A DNA stretch of 64,000 bases from a virus. The stretch lies in the IMG/VR virus record IMGVR_UViG_3300036770_003016; one strand, given 5' to 3'. Below the pieces are notes generated by a model that did no database searches, was not told the DNA's origin, and was given only the letters and a program-made list of their open reading frames with translations. Below, piece by piece: positions 18-46,833 of the stretch; the first letter of the stretch is position 1, and the number at the start of each line of letters is the position of its first letter. The position numbers were made by a program, and so were the translations under genes.

Positions 18-1682
18 TTAAAAACTCCTTGATATGACTGTTTTTGTTGCGATTCTATTTACCGCAGAAATAAATGGTGGTCCAGAAAGTTCACCAGTGT
101 CAGCGTTAATTTCTAATCCCCCAACAAATATTGCAGAACCTTGATCGTCTTGTCCACTTGCTATAACTAATCCTCTTTCTAATTCAAGTATGCTATCTTG
201 TATTTTAGCAGAGTTTTTGGCAGGAGGTATCTTAGTTAATGCAACACCTGCCATTACTCCACTCCAAGTATGACCTATAGCAGTTATAGTAGAAGGTTCA
301 AGTATTCTTTTTGGATTTTGTAATGTACTATTTATTGCGTCTACAGCATCGATAACTATAGTTTGTGCATTTCCACTTATACCAGGCAAAGCATTTATTT
401 CGTCTCTTAAGTACTCAAAAGAATATTCAAATGCTGCTTGCTTATCTTGTGTAAAAACTGGTTTTGTATTTGCATCCCAAGGTGTAGGATCACTTGGATC
501 AGCTTCTGTTGTAAATAATGATTTAGTAAAATCTAATATTGGTTGTTCATTTTTAGTCAATAATACCCATCTAAGAGATTGTAGGAATGTTGCAGCATCT
601 CTTCTCGTAAATTCTTCATCTTCGGCGTTCCAAGTTGCAGTATATCCTTCTGACACTAAAGAGTTCCACAGACTGTCAATTAAAGCTTCAGTATATTCAT
701 CTATTAATTGATCTGCTTCTGCTCCTTGTGCTTCAGTTATGGAAATCGTGCCTATTTTATAGGGATCAATCATTTGACGAACACCTTTGGCAACCATTGT
801 GTAATCACCAAATTGCGTACTACAGCTCGATAGGATTATTTGACCACCACTAAGAGCATAAAAGTGTCTATGTGACCATAAACAAACAGCATTAACAGCG
901 TTAATTAAACCACCATTTTTTGCACAATATCCAATACCGTTATGTGAAACTGGAGTAGCACCCCATGTCATAATATTAGGAAATATACTATAAGGAGAAC
1001 AAACAGAACCATCCGCTAATGCAACTCCAGCACCCCTACCAACATAAGGATTTGGTTCACCTTCTTCTGGGTCTCTATCTAGAGGAGGAGCTACAAATGA
1101 CCATGTTGGTGTAGTTCTAACTGCTATCTTGTGTGCATATGGCACTCTTCGTATTACCGCACCAGGCCTAAATGAAACAGCAAATCCTTCAGTTGGATTA
1201 TCCATATCATCTAAACGCCAATCTTCAAATATTGGCCCCTCTAAGAAACAACCAGAACCTAAACGAAACACATTTCTTTCTTCAAATCCTGGTTTTGGAC
1301 GAAAGACAGCACTTCTATGTGCAGCTCTTATAATCGTATCATCTGGAACATCTAAATGACCTTCAGTTAAATATACTCCAGCTCCTAATTCAATAAGGGT
1401 CAACATCTCTAATTCTTCTACAACTTCTAAAGCCTTTTCAATCGTTTGAAATGCTCTGTCCCAAGATTTGCCGTCAAAATTATCATTACCATATGGTGAA
1501 ACATAAAAAACATTTGGTGCTTGACCATACTCTCTTAAGTCTTTAAGAAAGTTTTCTAGTGTTATCTTTTTTGTTTTTAAGTAATCGTCTTCTTCTTCAA
1601 GATCAACCATCACTAAAAGATTATTCGCAGTATTAGAACTTACTGTTTGTAGTTCTGGCAGTTGCGTAATTTTAATAGGCAT
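18..1682 (-). CDS. Virion structural protein (beta-helix/DUF1565-like start)
   Basis: 554 aa ORF; FYVSPYGNDNFDGKSWDRAFQTI motif typical of beta-helix virion proteins; follows baseplate wedge genes. Confidence 0.55.
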   Translation of the reverse strand: MPIKITQLPELQTVSSNTANNLLVMVDLEEEDDYLKTKKITLENFLKDLREYGQAPNVFYVSPYGNDNFDGKSWDRAFQTIEKALEVVEELEMLTLIELGAGVYLTEGHLDVPDDTIIRAAHRSAVFRPKPGFEERNVFRLGSGCFLEGPIFEDWRLDDMDNPTEGFAVSFRPGAVIRRVPYAHKIAVRTTPTWSFVAPPLDRDPEEGEPNPYVGRGAGVALADGSVCSPYSIFPNIMTWGATPVSHNGIGYCAKNGGLINAVNAVCLWSHRHFYALSGGQIILSSCSTQFGDYTMVAKGVRQMIDPYKIGTISITEAQGAEADQLIDEYTEALIDSLWNSLVSEGYTATWNAEDEEFTRRDAATFLQSLRWVLLTKNEQPILDFTKSLFTTEADPSDPTPWDANTKPVFTQDKQAAFEYSFEYLRDEINALPGISGNAQTIVIDAVDAINSTLQNPKRILEPSTITAIGHTWSGVMAGVALTKIPPAKNSAKIQDSILELERGLVIASGQDDQGSAIFVGGLEINADTGELSGPPFISAVNRIATKTVISRSF

Positions 1683-20638: not shown

Positions 20639-21343
20639 TTAGTCCCACAGATTTCTGTAGTACTTACCAAACAGTCTTGTACCGTTATTGATTCGTTCAT
20701 TGTACTTTTCGTAACCTTCACGATCAAACTCTGCGGTGTGATTTGGTCCCCTCTCAAAAGTATAAAGAGTTGGTTTACCATTCTCATCCCACTCGCAAGG
20801 TACAGACTTCATATCATGTACACCAGTATGGAATTGTGCATCATAGTCATCGTTACATAACTGTTCAAATGCCCAAATCATTTCATCAAGAACCCATTCC
20901 CATCGTGCATGAATATCACAATGACTTTCTTTTGGTTCGTCTTGCTTATAGAAATCAAAAGTTTCTTGTGCATCATATTCTTCATGTGTGATGCAACGAA
21001 GATGTTCTGGTACATCCTCTAAGTCTACCATAGGAGAACCATGCTTAGTCTTTTTCAACTGCTTGAGCATTGGCAGGATGATTGGAGACAATGTTGTATC
21101 CATGTTCCAAGTGTCGTACTTGTCAATCTTGACATACTCAATTCTTGGATGAACAAAATCAAGAAACTTCTGAAACCCAACACAAACAGGATTCAGAAGA
21201 TTGACAAACTTCTCGTACTTGTTTTTTGGATCGTCATCAAGATTATAGATGATGTCTTTGTCTTTTTCCCAAAAACAAATTTTGGTCAAAATTGTATATG
21301 GAGACAACCAATGATTACGATATTTGCTGATGTATACTTTCAC
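20639..21343 (-). CDS. Conserved phage hypothetical protein
   Basis: IDKYDTWNMD.TL..II.PMLKQL; G..LFGKYY..LWD. Confidence 0.7.
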   Translation of the reverse strand: MKVYISKYRNHWLSPYTILTKICFWEKDKDIIYNLDDDPKNKYEKFVNLLNPVCVGFQKFLDFVHPRIEYVKIDKYDTWNMDTTLSPIILPMLKQLKKTKHGSPMVDLEDVPEHLRCITHEEYDAQETFDFYKQDEPKESHCDIHARWEWVLDEMIWAFEQLCNDDYDAQFHTGVHDMKSVPCEWDENGKPTLYTFERGPNHTAEFDREGYEKYNERINNGTRLFGKYYRNLWD

Positions 21344-21364
21344 AATGTTTTCCCATAAAAAAAT

Positions 21365-21698
21365 AAGTGCCGACTGATTGGGTGATAAGGTACAGTCGGC
21401 GAAACCTCAGCTCAGCATGCCTTAGGCAGCTAAAGCGAAACGCTCATCGTTTGCGTTTATTTTATTTACTTTTTACGACTCTCTGTGTCGGATCGTCCAT
21501 CTTTCTACTCTTTGCCCTGTCGAAACCAGGTCAGGCCCATTAGGAAGCATACTAAATCTGCACTTTTTCAGTCGGGGCTATCTGCTATTATGCAGCCTAC
21601 CGGCAGTCCTTGACCGATCTTCATAGTATGCTTTCTGGTGGACCTGGAGGGAATCGAACCCTCGTCCAGAACACCTTTCAATTAACTTCATACGATCA
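21365..21698 (-). ncRNA. ssrA: Circularly permuted (two-piece) tmRNA, tag ANDERFALAA
   Basis: T-arm GAGGG-TTCGATT-CCCTC plus CAGGTCC-ACCA (ends 21636) precedes the 5' acceptor strand GGGCCTG-ACCTGGTTTCGAC (starts 21538); tag ORF 21454-21422; G3:U70 pair; outer ends approximate. Confidence 0.93.
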
Positions 21699-21730
21699 TA
21701 TTACTACTATAACAGAAACTATTTATTTTG

Positions 21731-22048
21731 TCAAGCAGGTTTACCGTTATTTGCCGGTTTAATTTCTTCGCCTGAACTGATAATACAGTATGTTTTGTCG
21801 CCAGGAAAATATTCTACAAGAGTCCAAGATTTAGTCTCAAAATTAATATAAAGAGTAGTGTGAATCTTCATTGGTTGACTAGTAGTAACACTTTCTCTTA
21901 TTGTTGCCATTTGAAATGCTGGTACTTCTTTGTATACTCTAAGCATTTCTCTCATCTGTTCTTCATCACCACAATCGATTGGGATTTGATAGTTTTGAGA
22001 AAATGCAGCCAAAGGAAACATCATTAAAGCTGCGATTAGTGATTTCAT
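21731..22048 (-). CDS. Hypothetical exported protein
   Basis: Signal-peptide-like N-terminus. Confidence 0.6.
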   Translation of the reverse strand: MKSLIAALMMFPLAAFSQNYQIPIDCGDEEQMREMLRVYKEVPAFQMATIRESVTTSQPMKIHTTLYINFETKSWTLVEYFPGDKTYCIISSGEEIKPANNGKPA

Positions 22049-41556: not shown

Positions 41557-41631
41557 TGGCACCACTGAGAGGAATCGAACCCCTATTCTAGGTTTAGAAG
41601 ACCCATGTCCTATCCGTTGAACGACAGTGGT
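41557..41631 (-). tRNA. tRNA-Arg(TCT)
   Basis: Cloverleaf, loop CTTCTAA, CCA. Confidence 0.9.
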
Positions 41632-41636
41632 ATATT

Positions 41637-41719
41637 TGGTGCGAGTGGAGGGATTCGAACCCTCAATCCAGAGGCGGCAAATTTTAAGTCTGCTGTGTAT
41701 ACCGTTCCACCACACTCGC
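41637..41719 (-). tRNA. tRNA-Leu(TAA)
   Basis: Loop CTTAAAA, variable arm, CCA. Confidence 0.9.
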
Positions 41720-41764
41720 AATAAAAACATTATAACATAAATTTGTGTTGTTTACAGGTAATAT

Positions 41765-41841
41765 TGGTGCCTCAGGAGAGATTCGAACTCTCAGAATCTT
41801 GCTTCTAAGGCAAGCATGTTTACCAATTTCATCACCGAGGC
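41765..41841 (-). tRNA. tRNA-Leu(TAG), short variable loop
   Basis: Loop CTTAGAA, 77 nt, CCA. Confidence 0.85.
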
Positions 41842-41843
41842 AT

Positions 41844-41919
41844 TGGTGCGACCTAGAGGAATCGAACCTCTTTCCATGGCTCTTCAGGCCACTGCTATGA
41901 CCACATCAGCTAAAGTCGC
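41844..41919 (-). tRNA. tRNA-Phe(GAA)
   Basis: Loop CTGAAGA, CCA. Confidence 0.9.
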
Positions 41920-41920
41920 A

Positions 41921-41995
41921 TGGTGCACCGTGAAGGTTACGCTCCCTCTACCCTCTGCTTGTAAGGCAGACGCTCTACTATTGAGCTAACGATGC
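41921..41995 (-). tRNA. tRNA-Val(TAC)
   Basis: Loop CTTACAA; atypical T-loop AGCGTAA. Confidence 0.85.
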
Positions 41996-41996
41996 G

Positions 41997-42072
41997 TGGG
42001 GTGTCCTATGAGGATCGAACTCATACTCTCTCGTTCACAGCAAGAAGTGCAGACCACTACACTAAGGACACC
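41997..42072 (-). tRNA. tRNA-His(GTG)
   Basis: Loop CTGTGAA, G-1:C73. Confidence 0.9.
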
Positions 42073-42081
42073 AAGAGCATT

Positions 42082-42155
42082 TGGAGCGGCTAAAGAGAAT
42101 CGAACTCTTAACTTCTGCTTGGAAGGCAGTGGTTTTACCATTAAACTACAGCCGC
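42082..42155 (-). tRNA. tRNA-Gly(TCC)
   Basis: Loop CTTCCAA, U73. Confidence 0.9.
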
Positions 42156-42160
42156 TTATT

Positions 42161-42469
42161 TTAATCCCAAGGTGGATAACCGCCTTGAATACAAATCATT
42201 TTCATCGGACCAGAATAATCTCTCCATTCAATTACTTTACCATTCTTATCAAGAGGCCTTAGATCAGGTAGCGCAAATGTCGTTCTACCATCACCGCCAT
42301 ACTTTGTACCAATAATGGAAAAGAGTGCTTCGTTTCCTTTTACTTGCATGATTTGACCACTACAAGGTGCCCAAGTACGAACACCTCTAGTTCCAGCAAA
42401 CTCTGTGATTGATCCGAGCATATCACCTTCTACTGACATGCCAAGTTTTTGTAACATTTTCTTAATCAT
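42161..42469 (-). CDS. Stand-alone tail collar domain protein
   Basis: G.I..FAG, W..C.GQ, ALFSIIGT.YGGDGRTTFALPDLR. Confidence 0.85.
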   Translation of the reverse strand: MIKKMLQKLGMSVEGDMLGSITEFAGTRGVRTWAPCSGQIMQVKGNEALFSIIGTKYGGDGRTTFALPDLRPLDKNGKVIEWRDYSGPMKMICIQGGYPPWD

Positions 42470-42478
42470 ATTTTCTCC

Positions 42479-42946
42479 TTAAGCAGCTAAACTTTTGTAA
42501 CGATCTGCAGCGTATGATGCCGCAAACGCTCTTGGTTTTACCATAGGAATTACATTACAAGTTCCACGAATATAACCAATTGCTTCATTGATCACGCAAT
42601 TTGAACCATGCATTTCACTTGGGTTGATATCAAGGTGGACTTCTACATCACGACCTTCCAGAACATCAGCCAACTTTAAATACATTTCAGATACCTTGTA
42701 TACTTCATTCATCAAACGGTATCTCGGACGATCTTCTTTTTGGTCATAGTCTCTTTCACGAACAACTTCACCAAAAAGTTTGCAACCGTGTTTTCCATCT
42801 TTGTGAACAACTATAGCAATTATATAGTCAGCATGCCACACTTCATTCACTCTTAATCTTTCAGAATCACATCCAAGATAAATTTTTGTTTCTGGCGATT
42901 GTCTTGAGATGTAATCTTTCACTTCTTGTAAATTTATCTTGAACAT
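42479..42946 (-). CDS. RNase H-like YkuK family protein
   Basis: IYLGCDS, RLMNEV, VHLDINP, AASYAAD. Confidence 0.8.
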   Translation of the reverse strand: MFKINLQEVKDYISRQSPETKIYLGCDSERLRVNEVWHADYIIAIVVHKDGKHGCKLFGEVVRERDYDQKEDRPRYRLMNEVYKVSEMYLKLADVLEGRDVEVHLDINPSEMHGSNCVINEAIGYIRGTCNVIPMVKPRAFAASYAADRYKSLAA

Positions 42947-42960
42947 GATATCTCCTTAAT

Positions 42961-43034
42961 TGGCCTCGGTGGACAGAATCGAACTGCCATGACTGGTTTT
43001 GGAGACCAGCGTAATGCCTTTATACGACACCGAG
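42961..43034 (-). tRNA. tRNA-Trp(CCA)
   Basis: Loop CTCCAAA. Confidence 0.9.
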
Positions 43035-43051
43035 ATTAAAACTACTTATAA

Positions 43052-43125
43052 TGGTCCTTCCTGATGGTTACGATCCACCGTCTAGCGGTTATCAACCGCT
43101 TGCTCTGCCATTGAGCTAAGGAAGG
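43052..43125 (-). tRNA. tRNA-Ile(GAT)
   Basis: Loop TTGATAA; atypical T-loop ATCGTAA. Confidence 0.85.
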
Positions 43126-43127
43126 AT

Positions 43128-43202
43128 TGGCACCACCTAAAGGAATCAAACCCTTTCTACAATGTCCGTAGCATTGCGTGCTATTCAGTACACTAAGGTG
43201 GT
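43128..43202 (-). tRNA. tRNA-Arg(ACG)
   Basis: Loop CTACGGA. Confidence 0.88.
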
Positions 43203-43209
43203 ATAATTA

Positions 43210-43286
43210 TGGTCTGGGTAGAGAGGATCGAACTCCCGACCTCCTGCTCCCAAAGCAGGCGCACTACCTGGCTGTGCTATACCCAG
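43210..43286 (-). tRNA. tRNA-Pro(TGG)
   Basis: Loop TTTGGGA. Confidence 0.9.
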
Positions 43287-43295
43287 ACGAAACTT

Positions 43296-43370
43296 TGGTG
43301 CCCCCGGAGAGATTTGAACTCCCGACCGCTCGCTTACAAGGCGAGAACTCTACCACTGAGCTACAGGGGC
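43296..43370 (-). tRNA. tRNA-Thr(TGT)
   Basis: Loop CTTGTAA. Confidence 0.9.
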
Positions 43371-43375
43371 AAAAC

Positions 43376-43452
43376 TGGTGGCGATGGAAGGATTCGAGCC
43401 TTCGATCTTTTCCGTATGAAGGAACTGCATTTGACCGCTATGCTACATCGCC
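43376..43452 (-). tRNA. tRNA-Met(CAT) elongator
   Basis: Loop TTCATAC, paired 1:72. Confidence 0.85.
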
Positions 43453-43622
43453 ATTAGTGAGAGTACTATCATATCTGTTTAAGGACACTTTTCAGTCCTC
43501 TCTGCATCCCTTAGACTCACCACAAGTCTCGCACCAACGGCGTGGATTCATGCAAAGATGAGTACTACCACGATAGTCTGGCTGCTGGTTAGGCACTTCG
43601 TTCTACAGACTCTCACTAATGG
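43451..43622 (-). ncRNA. Candidate structured RNA closed by 14-bp stem between tRNA-Asn and tRNA-Met
   Basis: CCATTAGTGAGAGT / ACTCTCACTAATGG perfect inverted repeat. Confidence 0.6.
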
Positions 43623-43694
43623 CTCCAGAGGTAGGGATCGAACCTACGACACACGGATTAACAGTCCGCTGATCTACCGCTGATCTACTCTGGA
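43620..43694 (-). tRNA. tRNA-Asn(GTT)
   Basis: Loop CTGTTAA. Confidence 0.9.
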
Positions 43695-43889
43695 ACAGGT
43701 GCTTCCTCTCTGCGGTGGTAATTATAGTGTCTCCAGTTTCGAACCCTTCAACGACACCTTCCACCCACTTCACGACCAAAGAGAATTCTCGCATTGCCAG
43801 CGCCATTTGCTCCAAATGGTAAGGTCCTGTGGGTATCACACCACTTCTCGACATGCGGACCACACTAGCCGTTGATTAGACGGCACGTT

Positions 43890-43963
43890 TGGTAGCGGGT
43901 AGCCGAATTGCACGACTAACTGTAGCTTATGAGACTACCGAGATACTATTTCTCTAACCCGCA
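43890..43963 (-). tRNA. tRNA-Met(CAT), initiator-like
   Basis: Loop CTCATAA; 1:72 mismatch; lacks the three G-C anticodon-stem pairs. Confidence 0.75.
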
Positions 43964-43968
43964 AAACT

Positions 43969-44043
43969 TGGCGGTCCCAACGAGATTCGAACTCGTTCCT
44001 GCGCCGTGACAGGGCGCTATACTCGCCGATATACTATGGAACC
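43969..44043 (-). tRNA. tRNA-Asp(GTC)
   Basis: Loop CTGTCAC. Confidence 0.9.
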
Positions 44044-44050
44044 ATAAAAC

Positions 44051-44125
44051 TGGTAGGCGCACGGAGAATCGAACTCCGGTCAATAGATTAAAAGTCTACT
44101 GCTTTAACCCCTAAGCTATACGCCC
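44051..44125 (-). tRNA. tRNA-Lys(TTT)
   Basis: Loop CTTTTAA. Confidence 0.9.
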
Positions 44126-44238
44126 AAAATTTGGTGCTATGTCCTACTTGCAATAGGACTCTAGTCGCAGTTTGAGAGGCATCGTTCCTAGGATCGAGAG
44201 GCACATTCTGCCACAGCGTAAAGCGACGCTGTGCATCT

Positions 44239-44314
44239 TGGTGGAGAGTATCGGGTTCGAACCGATGACCTCCTGCTTGCAAAGCAGGCGTTCTCCCAAC
44301 TGAACTAACTCCCC
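44239..44314 (-). tRNA. tRNA-Ala(TGC)
   Basis: Loop TTTGCAA, G3:U70. Confidence 0.92.
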
Positions 44315-44892
44315 ATATTGAAACACACTATGCCACGCTCTGAACCTGGACTCTTAGTAATGTGTTCGAATATGGTGTTGCTTGTTCCCGTCCGTCGGGC
44401 CAATGTGTCGGGCTTTATTGCTCTCTACCTATTCAGCCATTCCCATCGTCGAGAGTCAATGGGAAACATCTTGACACACCATCTAACTTAGATTACTTTG
44501 CCATTAGGCGTTTCATCTACTAGCAGTCAGCAAACCATATTGAAGCACACTGACAGTATCGAAACTGCCCACACCGCCGAAAGACGATGCTAGGTCCACT
44601 CCCAAGGCCGGCGCCATCTAGCCTTAGTGTGCTTCAATATGGTTGCTGGTTACGACTCCAGCACAATCGTATCGTCATTGTCGCTCGAATCACGCCTGTG
44701 TCTTCGTCAAAGGCTCGCCGCCTTTATACACGCTTCAGGTATTCGTGTTCTGGGATCAGCCCGAGGACTTTTCGGTCCCCACTTACTCCCATATTCAAGC
44801 ACACTCGTTGTAGACTTTCTGTTAGTATCCCTTACGGGTCCCCGCTGGCAGCCCCAATGGCTGGGCCGGGCGACTAAGAATGTGCTTGAATA

Positions 44893-44978
44893 TGGTGGGC
44901 TTCGTTGGAATCGAACCAACGCTTTCTCTTTTCGATTGCTCTACTCAGAGTCGTGCCCCCAGCAAACACCAGAAGCCC
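44893..44978 (-). ncRNA. tRNA-like RNA with aberrant anticodon arm
   Basis: Acceptor GGGCTTC/GAAGCCC-ACCA, T-arm GTTGG-TTCGATT-CCAAC; no 7-nt anticodon loop. Confidence 0.7.
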
Positions 44979-45071
44979 AAATAAACTTTACCATATTGAA
45001 GCGCACTTAGACTACTACCCTACTCGAGCATAGCCTTTCAGAGCTTCACCCAAATGCACTTCAGTATGGTA

Positions 45072-45185
45072 TGGTAGCAGGAGTGGTTGCGATCCACTGC
45101 AGAGCACCGGGATTAAGGCCTTGTAGTTGGCTTGCTCTAGAGTCACCAATCTCTCAGAGGACCAATGACCGGCTTCATACCTGCC
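45072..45185 (-). ncRNA. tRNA-like RNA with large interior
   Basis: GGCAGG/CCTGCT-ACCA stem, T-like arm AGTGG-ATCGCAA-CCACT. Confidence 0.6.
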
Positions 45186-45280
45186 CTACTACCATATTGA
45201 AACACACTGGTCGAAGCAGATACGGAAGACACCCGCTGCTGTTTCCGATGCCTAGTCGGACTCGTCAATGCGCTTCAATA

Positions 45281-45368
45281 TGGTGGGTGGTGATGGTAAC
45301 GCTCCACGAGGCAACTTCCGATCTTATTATGCCGACGGTTTTACAGACCGCTGACCGGGGCACCACCC
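45281..45368 (-). tRNA. Atypical tRNA-Tyr(GTA) lacking D-arm
   Basis: Acceptor GGGTGGT/ACCACCC-ACCA; anticodon arm GCGGT-CTGTAAA-ACCGT; long variable region. Confidence 0.7.
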
Positions 45369-45373
45369 GTATT

Positions 45374-45450
45374 TGGTACACCGTAGGGGATTTGAACCCC
45401 TGATCTTCTCCGTGAAAGGGAGATGTCCTAGGCCGCTAGACGAACGGTGC
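45374..45450 (-). tRNA. tRNA-Glu(TTC)
   Basis: Loop CTTTCAC. Confidence 0.9.
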
Positions 45451-45453
45451 AAG

Positions 45454-45553
45454 TAAACAACACAAATTTTTAAAGAACAATTCATCACATCATGTAGATC
45501 ATTATACACTAAACCTACGAATTGTCAACTACTACTGTTGTAAAAAAACAACA
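45454..45553 (-). promoter_or_regulatory. Internal tRNA-operon promoter with boxA-like leader
   Basis: TTGACA-16-TATAAT (45528-45501), TGTTG-N8-CAACA box 45536-45553, TGTTCTTTAAAAATT at 45479-45465. Confidence 0.75.
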
Positions 45554-45556
45554 GAG

Positions 45557-45634
45557 TGGAAGTACGGGTCGGATTCGAACCGACGAATCAAGAGTTTTGC
45601 AGGCTCCGCCATTAGACCGCTCTGGTACCGTACT
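45557..45634 (-). tRNA. tRNA-Cys(GCA)
   Basis: Loop CTGCAAA, U73. Confidence 0.88.
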
Positions 45635-45639
45635 ATAAC

Positions 45640-45729
45640 TGGTGGAGAATCAGGGAGTCGAACCCTGTGACCCTATTTCTAGAATCTACGGATTAGCAAT
45701 CCGCTGCATTACCATCCTGCCCATTCTCC
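45640..45729 (-). tRNA. tRNA-Ser(GCT)
   Basis: Loop TTGCTAA, long variable arm. Confidence 0.9.
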
Positions 45730-45733
45730 GAAT

Positions 45734-45825
45734 TGGTGGAAGCGGTGAGATTCGAACTCACGGGCCACTTTCATGACCGACAGTTTTCAAGACTGTTGCA
45801 ATAAACCGGACTCTGCCACACTTCC
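45734..45825 (-). tRNA. tRNA-Ser(TGA)
   Basis: Loop CTTGAAA, long variable arm. Confidence 0.9.
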
Positions 45826-45896
45826 ATATGGAAACACATTGCCAAGTAGAGCCATGGTATCTTGTGCGGGAGCAACCCCTACAATGTGCTTTCATA

Positions 45897-45991
45897 TGGT
45901 CCTTGGACTAGGATTCGAACCTAGATCATCCCCTCATCTAGAGGCATCGCCGAGGTATAAGCTCGGAGTTTTACCATTAAACTATCCAAGG
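45897..45991 (-). tRNA. tRNA with TAT anticodon (Ile-UAU) and long variable arm
   Basis: CCGAG-CTTATAC-CTCGG; 95 nt; CCA. Confidence 0.8.
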
Positions 45992-45993
45992 AT

Positions 45994-46071
45994 TGGTGGG
46001 GGATACTGGATTCGAACCAGTGAATGTCGGATTCAAAATCCGATGCCTTAGACCAGCTTGGCTAATCCCCT
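45994..46071 (-). tRNA. tRNA-Gln(TTG)
   Basis: Loop TTTTGAA, 1:72 mismatch. Confidence 0.9.
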
Positions 46072-46100
46072 AATAAACAACACAAATTTTTAAAGAGCGG

Positions 46101-46139
46101 AAAACAAAAACCCCCGAATTTTTTAGGTTCGGGGGTTTG
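46101..46139 (-). terminator. Intrinsic terminator/attenuator upstream of tRNA array
   Basis: AAACCCCCGAA-CCTAAAAAA-TTCGGGGGTTT-TTGTTTT on - strand. Confidence 0.85.
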
Positions 46140-46163
46140 TGTGAAAAACGATTAAAACTATTT

Positions 46164-46280
46164 TTACGCAAACCCCCCAATATCACTAAAATTGCAATTT
46201 GGTGAGCGATACTCTGCCTGCCATGTGCCTGTTGCACTGGCCTTGAGAGTAATTGTAGTGAAATGTAAGGAAGTTTTCAT
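46164..46280 (-). CDS. Putative 38-aa leader peptide (not in ORF track)
   Basis: MKTSLHFTTITLKASATGTWQAEYRSPNCNFSDIGGFA*; last codons overlap antiterminator strand. Confidence 0.65.
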   Translation of the reverse strand: MKTSLHFTTITLKASATGTWQAEYRSPNCNFSDIGGFA

Positions 46281-46289
46281 AGTTTTATA

Positions 46290-46318
46290 AGTGTATCACT
46301 GTATTTAGTAAAAGTCAA
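46290..46318 (-). promoter_or_regulatory. Promoter for leader/tRNA array
   Basis: TTGACT-17-TACACT; nested late-type CTAAATA 46308-46302. Confidence 0.65.
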
Positions 46319-46347: not shown

Positions 46348-46833
46348 TTACGGTTGAATAGGCCAATTCACTATCTTTGGGAATTCCGATTGTTGAGGTA
46401 TTTCTCTTAAAAATTTTCGGTATTCAATCCATTGTTGTTTAATGGCATCTGGAATAGGAGAATCCGGCATAACAGTCCAATCTGATTTTGCCAATAATTC
46501 GTCTCTCTTCTTCCTCACTTCACTTGATTTATAATCGAGCATTTCTTGTCTACTCTCTGGAGATCGTGGAGTGGGAACATGATTCTTATACCATTTGCCA
46601 TCATCACCTTTAGTTGGAACACCCTCACTATATTCGTATTCAATCCAATCATATTCTATTTGTAAATGATGAACTAAAACATATCCACTAGGCAAAGGTT
46701 TAGTTTCATCATAAAATTTATCTAAATTTTCATCTACTTTAGCTATCTCTGGATACTCTTTAATCAAGATTCCTTCAGGTACTGGATACTCCAATACATT
46801 ATCATTAGAATCTATTTTAGCAAAAAATCTCAT
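46348..46833 (-). CDS. Tail fibre assembly chaperone
   Basis: VR..RD.LL..SDWT..PDSP, W..YR..LR.IPQQ..FP....WP. Confidence 0.85.
   Translation of the reverse strand: MRFFAKIDSNDNVLEYPVPEGILIKEYPEIAKVDENLDKFYDETKPLPSGYVLVHHLQIEYDWIEYEYSEGVPTKGDDGKWYKNHVPTPRSPESRQEMLDYKSSEVRKKRDELLAKSDWTVMPDSPIPDAIKQQWIEYRKFLREIPQQSEFPKIVNWPIQP

Follow-up and report, generated by a model that had tools for sequence, protein, structure and literature searches.

The tRNA array of the T4-like phage analyzed here is preceded by a short leader which almost certainly belongs to a real and widespread class of ribosome-coupled attenuators. The leader, located on the minus strand of a 64,000-nt stretch of viral DNA (the window), contains a 38-codon ORF ending on one strand of an antiterminator, and is probably a sensor, maintained by selection, whose purpose is to sample almost every codon. 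Counting distinct phage leaders, the layout is found 64 times ahead of tRNA arrays; 42 of these leaders encode all 20 amino acids, some in only 31 codons. The switch is known from sequence and folding, and at this level the reading given in the first-pass annotation, a translation-sensing attenuator in front of phage tRNA genes, is largely supported. The trigger may be tRNA nucleases, starvation or general ribosome stress, all of them candidates.

The window carries genes for baseplate wedge, single-strand binding and tail-fibre functions, 25 tRNAs, and a permuted tmRNA of betaproteobacterial type, the latter hinting at a betaproteobacterial host. The leader resides between a tail-fibre assembly gene (ending at 46348) and tRNA-Gln, all on the minus strand (Table 1). 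The promoter, the ORF (19 of 20 amino acids, no Val, 28 distinct codons), the antiterminator, the terminator, the boxA and the first tRNA were all found where the first-pass annotation had placed them. The promoter (-35 TTGACT at 46318-46313, 17-nt spacer, TG-extended -10 TACACT at 46295-46290) scores 9/12 only, and is not significant alone, 44 such sites occurring in the window against 37.2 in shuffles. Transcripts would be expected to start at about 46284-46283, i.e. 3-4 nt 5' of the ATG, which lies at 46280, 9 nt past the -10, and is not preceded by a Shine-Dalgarno sequence. The ORF lacks internal Met as well as Val. A set of 19 amino acids is only mildly unusual in this copy alone (P 0.04 when compared with protein windows and 0.09 with shuffles; reached by 4 of the 222 short ORFs of the window), and the significance of the coverage comes from the relatives, not from the window copy alone. 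The antiterminator strands (20 nt, 85% pairing) fold, at 46180-46132, with -15.2 kcal/mol, the terminator stem (46138-46108) with -16.7 kcal/mol; the latter was overlooked by the terminator scan because its loop has 9 nt. The run CCCCC at 46135-46131 is common to both structures, which are mutually exclusive, as had been claimed. The whole leader folds at z -3.75. A 23-nt portion of the boxA-like region is repeated exactly at 45454-45476, past the second promoter, and a boxA-like site is found downstream in many relatives also; the exact boxA-repeat pattern had no match in viral sequences.

Table 1. Features of the leader region, the tRNA array and the tmRNA of the window
Feature	Position	Strand	Remarks
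sigma70-type promoter, extended -10	46290..46318	-	nearly leaderless mRNA expected
leader ORF, 38 codons	46164..46280	-	predicted sensing zone, codons 2-31/32
candidate pause hairpin inside ORF	46220..46241	-	-11.9 kcal/mol
putative elemental pause consensus, G-11 G-10 ... C-1 / G+1	46207..46218	-	
antiterminator 5' strand	46161..46178	-	covers final four codons and stop
antiterminator 3' strand	46131..46148	-	overlaps 5' arm of terminator
intrinsic terminator	46101..46138	-	loop 9 nt, U tract 46110-46101
boxA-like element	46074..46098	-	boxA-like letters 46098-46087
first tRNA block	45557..46071	-	five tRNAs, reached only by read-through
tRNA-Gln	46071-45994	-	first tRNA after leader
second sigma70 promoter	45501..45528	-	perfect 12/12, 16-nt spacer, no leader, own boxA copy
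remaining tRNA array	41557..45450	-	19 tRNAs by ARAGORN, plus atypical elements
permuted betaproteobacterial-type tmRNA	21331-21748		own promoter, no leader

Folding was monitored on nascent RNA cut ahead of the 3' arm of the terminator, with a mask in place of the ribosome. When the ribosome is absent, the antiterminator is predicted to form with P 1.0 in the window copy, and with P >0.5 in 58 of 63 leaders. It is predicted to form, allowing read-through, also with the ribosome at codons 2-31, and to be lost from codon 32-35, according to the footprint assumed, with termination from about codon 34. The two states obtained with the ribosome mask, read-through and termination, are those that had been proposed. 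The further claim that a stall at almost any earlier codon induces the upstream part of the array holds in the model for codons 2-31, but not for the final 5-8 codons, predicted to be blind to stalls, nor for Val and elongator Met, which the window copy would be unable to sense. At equilibrium the terminator prevails in the full RNA of the window copy (0.88 vs. 0.12 for the antiterminator), so the switch would depend on folding kinetics. A protector helix at the 5' end of the full-length fold was rejected, because in nascent RNA it offers no competition; no such helix being predicted, failed initiation should also induce. Since a Shine-Dalgarno sequence is missing, late transcripts coming from the fibre genes should leave the leader untranslated and read through.

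The candidate hairpin inside the ORF is followed, at a distance of 12 nt, by a predicted pause at C46208, located by the elemental pause consensus of RNA polymerase. The 5' arm of the hairpin varies with pairing retained, as judged by eye in the family alignment. A hairpin followed by GG-N8-YG was found, at a near-constant distance from the start, in 11 of 37 representatives (1.2 in codon shuffles), most of them, window copy included, belonging to one sub-family; the short motif TWQA-x-YR shared by this sub-family near codons 19-25 overlaps both hairpin and consensus. These features may point to a mid-ORF pause coupling RNA polymerase to the ribosome.

Relatives of the leader were collected in two ways. 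Eighty loci were gathered via an unrelated gene of the tRNA array, not via the leader, and the layout was seen ahead of the first tRNA in many of them. In these loci an antiterminator with an ORF ending on its strand accompanies 17/28 tRNA-proximal terminators, and 9/120 other terminators. L015 was left out of the leader set because devoid of a promoter. The second route, pattern scans requiring RNA complementarity only, returned mostly heads of tRNA arrays, nearly all carrying a short ORF on the antiterminator. The antiterminator-terminator pattern had 23 viral matches; tRNA or tmRNA lies downstream of every non-duplicate inspected, accompanied, wherever the contig permits, by a short ORF that stops 12-19 nt past the start of the strand. 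Further leaders before tRNAs came from metagenome matches, five out of seven encoding 19-20 amino acids. The stop codon is found 20-36 nt ahead of the terminator stem (63 leaders), and ends 9-31 nt past the start of the G run (leader set). Starts are mostly leaderless, the ATG lying 6-7 nt past the -10 in 26 of 63 leaders; leaders without ATG begin at GTG or TTG. Antiterminator strands covary, pairing with their own partner at -17.8 and with swapped partners at -13.75 +/- 0.35 (63 leaders). Upstream genes vary among relatives, and the leader is kept with its own promoter. The regions upstream of tRNA arrays thus feature what the first-pass annotation had suggested looking for, i.e. a conserved short ORF of high amino-acid diversity ending on the antiterminator, with covariation.

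When cultured phages were searched with the DNA of the leader, tRNA-Gln was the sole match, and no such leader was detected in the fetched stretches of DLP_6, BUCT-ZZ01, Aeh1, LTH01, ValKK3 and MD18, the array head possibly lying outside some of them. The cultured Xanthomonas phages X1 (L329:1542-1720) and BUDD (L327:2783-2960) carry an unannotated 39-codon candidate leader before 36-tRNA arrays, with the same modelled switch geometry and a start preceded by the T4-late-like CATAAATA. The X1 leader has 19/20 amino acids, the BUDD leader 18/20, a figure not significant alone. The two phages are a possible test system. The same layout, with 28 codons and 18 amino acids, is found in L120 (~1049-1124, minus strand) before a tmRNA-like sequence, which ARAGORN did not confirm as a tmRNA. 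In bacterial genomes, a scan with a strict and narrow pattern had two matches, one before leuA, none before tRNAs. Bacterial contigs L131, L209, L218, L225, L239 and L146 contain what look like classical leu, trp and phe attenuators, with a G-run/C-run scaffold identical to that of the phage leaders.

For the analysis of amino-acid content, representatives were picked as greedy sets, single-linkage clustering having joined unrelated peptides. At <50% identity, 27 of 38 representatives have 20/20 amino acids (24 excluding three hand-corrected starts), the numbers expected being 0.41 (protein windows) and 0.65 (nucleotide shuffles); in the other two reading frames the set is complete in 1/76. 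Leaders possibly share ancestry, which makes nominal P values too small, yet the excess still holds at <40% identity (15/26 vs. 0.3-0.46 expected). Leaders vary in size from 31 to 48 codons and have a flat composition, the commonest residue averaging 13%, Ala about 6%. Amino-acid counts are under-dispersed, Trp having a mean of 1.0 per leader with a variance of 0.11, and the spread of synonymous codons exceeds chance, with z 7.5 relative to pooled leader usage and 2.2 relative to uniform usage. The set is complete earlier than with the order permuted (z 4.8), about 2 codons ahead of the G run, a point matching the modelled edge of the ribosome. Runs or clusters of control codons, by which classical leaders are recognized, were not found in phage leaders; such runs occur in the bacterial trp, phe and leu leaders sharing the RNA scaffold (L209, L218, L225, L239), which have 12-13 amino acids. 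Leaders L134, L138, L154, L160 and L275 have just 12-17 amino acids. Val is missing upstream of the G run in 12/37 leaders and Gly in 6/37, and neither could be sensed in those leaders; no other residues are so often confined to the blind tail. In close pairs, single-copy residues are replaced less (15% vs. 23%, p 3e-4 on non-independent counts), and pN/pS is 0.62, a weak peptide constraint suggesting that composition, not a protein, is selected. Indels among relatives are in frame in 19 cases, out of frame in 15, as counted in frame-blind alignments. Four-fold codons with a final U are rarer in the reading frame of the leaders than in other frames (14% vs. 25%), perhaps because codons that two tRNAs can read are avoided. 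The leaders are rich in Ser (10.9 vs. 6.2%) and in Cys (2.8 vs. 1.4%).

In the mechanism proposed, the host sigma70 polymerase would initiate 3-4 nt before the ATG, and a mid-ORF pause at the hairpin-stabilized site would let a ribosome load and couple. If all codons are decoded on time, the ribosome at the last codons or at the stop would cover the G-rich strand, and the terminator would form; upon a stall at codons 2-31, or lack of initiation, the antiterminator would form first, and transcription would proceed through boxA into the tRNAs, both outcomes being predicted in silico. The phage tRNAs would in turn restore the pool and close the switch, in a negative feedback. The likeliest selective signal, favored here with moderate confidence, is the disappearance of single species of charged tRNA in the course of infection, because extra tRNA cures tRNA loss, not lack of amino acids. 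More tentatively, the leader, with its full amino-acid set and its spread across isoacceptors, might audit the whole decoding machinery, so that destruction of any single tRNA by host immunity would elicit the phage tRNAs, in an inducible, target-agnostic counter-defence.

As the antiterminator forms without a ribosome, any translation block should induce, and whiB7 and the Anabaena trn operon answer to ribosome-targeting drugs (PMC10274678; PMC8421152); together with the layout found before a tmRNA-like gene in L120, this would suit a general translation-stress attenuator, reporting ribosome activity (antibiotics, toxins, host shut-off), in which amino-acid coverage is secondary or a by-product. 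A set of 20 amino acids is, however, not required for sensing activity alone, and the excess of complete sets is both extreme and front-loaded, which makes this explanation unlikely. Less probable still is an amino-acid-starvation timer, in which read-through serves mainly other outputs (structured non-tRNA RNAs, a starvation programme) and not tRNA refill: starvation likewise stalls ribosomes on every codon type, six stem-bounded RNA cassettes sit in the array, and downstream promoters already supply most tRNAs, but the element heads tRNA arrays in nearly all phage cases, and the spread of synonymous codons points to isoacceptors, not to amino acids. That the leader encodes a functional small protein, as the TWQA-x-YR motif may suggest, or that the hairpin, the only terminator between the fibre-assembly gene and the tRNAs, merely ends the tail-fibre operon, the remainder being chance, is highly improbable and largely refuted by the persistence of the leader with its own promoter beside differing upstream genes, by peptides unrelated in sequence, by the coincidence of the motif with hairpin and pause consensus, and by strand covariation.

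The reason why phages carry tRNA arrays has long been debated, codon bias being set against the refilling of tRNAs that infection depletes. If selected to respond to the loss of any tRNA, the sensor would argue for refill and make it testable with one 220-nt reporter. Attenuation would then work as an OR gate over ~19 inputs, and could be used as a compact biosensor for tRNA-targeting toxins; an all-amino-acid micro-ORF on an antiterminator would be a simple signature for finding translation-stress genes.

Leader-peptide attenuators are known from amino-acid operons (trpL, hisL, pheL, thrL, leuL, ilv). The phage leader resembles them in the terminator/antiterminator scaffold, even in the letters of G run and C run, in the stop lying on the antiterminator, and in having a candidate for the kind of hairpin pause present in his and trp. 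Unlike trpL and hisL, it has no runs of control codons, has mostly leaderless starts, targets tRNA genes, and has no predicted 1:2 protector helix, so that no super-attenuation is predicted when untranslated. T-box riboswitches bind one uncharged tRNA directly, independently of the ribosome, and are likewise antitermination devices reporting tRNA state; at gathering threshold, Rfam had no T-box or other cis-regulator family at the locus. The first-pass annotation had taken trp, his and pheM as precedents, and the scaffold is indeed the same; the nearest precedent is, however, the whiB7 uORF, already sensing many amino acids (PMC10274678). In whiB7/wblC of Actinobacteria the uORF also ends on the antiterminator, efficient translation leads to termination (PMC10274678), and a stall or loss of the start codon to read-through, an outcome predicted for the phage leader by folding only. 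Codons of the uORF set what is sensed in whiB7, and would do so in the phage leader; codon swaps showed experimentally that single whiB7 uORF codons confer sensing (PMC10274678). The M. smegmatis whiB7 uORF has every amino acid except Cys (PMC10274678), but whiB7 uORFs are Ala-rich (25-40%), often miss several amino acids, are not reported to be selected for completeness, and have a transcription factor as output, whereas the phage leader is flat in composition, near-complete, and followed by tRNAs. It would work by whiB7-type logic but, lacking the Ala enrichment and differing in output, is not a member of the group. In Anabaena, the 26-tRNA L-array of the trn operon is induced by translational stress (PMC8421152, PMC10272220), a long tRNA array being turned on, as predicted here, when translation fails; control is exerted by the repressor TrcR at the promoter, attenuation or a leader being unmentioned in the 2021 paper (PMC8421152, PMC10272220). 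A literature search, covering few subscription papers, found no account of leader attenuation of phage tRNA genes, in line with the earlier statement that no general tRNA-pool sensor had been described for a phage tRNA cluster; leader-controlled transcription of phage tRNAs appears unpublished, ribosome-mediated attenuation itself being known.

The switch had been supposed to gate the upstream part of the array, and five tRNAs indeed precede the second promoter: Gln(UUG), an Ile-anticodon UAU tRNA with a long arm, Ser(UGA), Ser(GCU) and Cys(GCA). As this promoter serves the array from tRNA-Glu, these five are the only ones for which the switch would be the sole control. A strong promoter lies between the terminator and the first tRNA in 11 of 29 relatives; no tRNA would depend solely on the switch there, and read-through would only add to basal output. 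In the leader set tRNA-Gln is almost always first, and Gln, Ser, Ser, Cys is a frequent make-up of the block that has no other promoter.

Additional elements reside in the array. A gene annotated as DUF458/ribonuclease (42479-42946) has the same placement in many relatives. Between tRNAs (44313-45286 and 45824-45899) lie six cassettes with variable structured interiors, flanked by the two arms of a repeated 17-bp stem; they have no match in Rfam. Neither ARAGORN nor Rfam detected an atypical tRNA-Tyr-like element at 45281-45369, which has an anticodon arm with GTA and an acceptor of 8 bp and lacks a normal D arm; with this element, the array would cover all 20 amino acids. The UAU-anticodon tRNA with a long variable arm maps at 45897-45991, and a 92-nt Ile-TAT tRNA is annotated in DLP_6.
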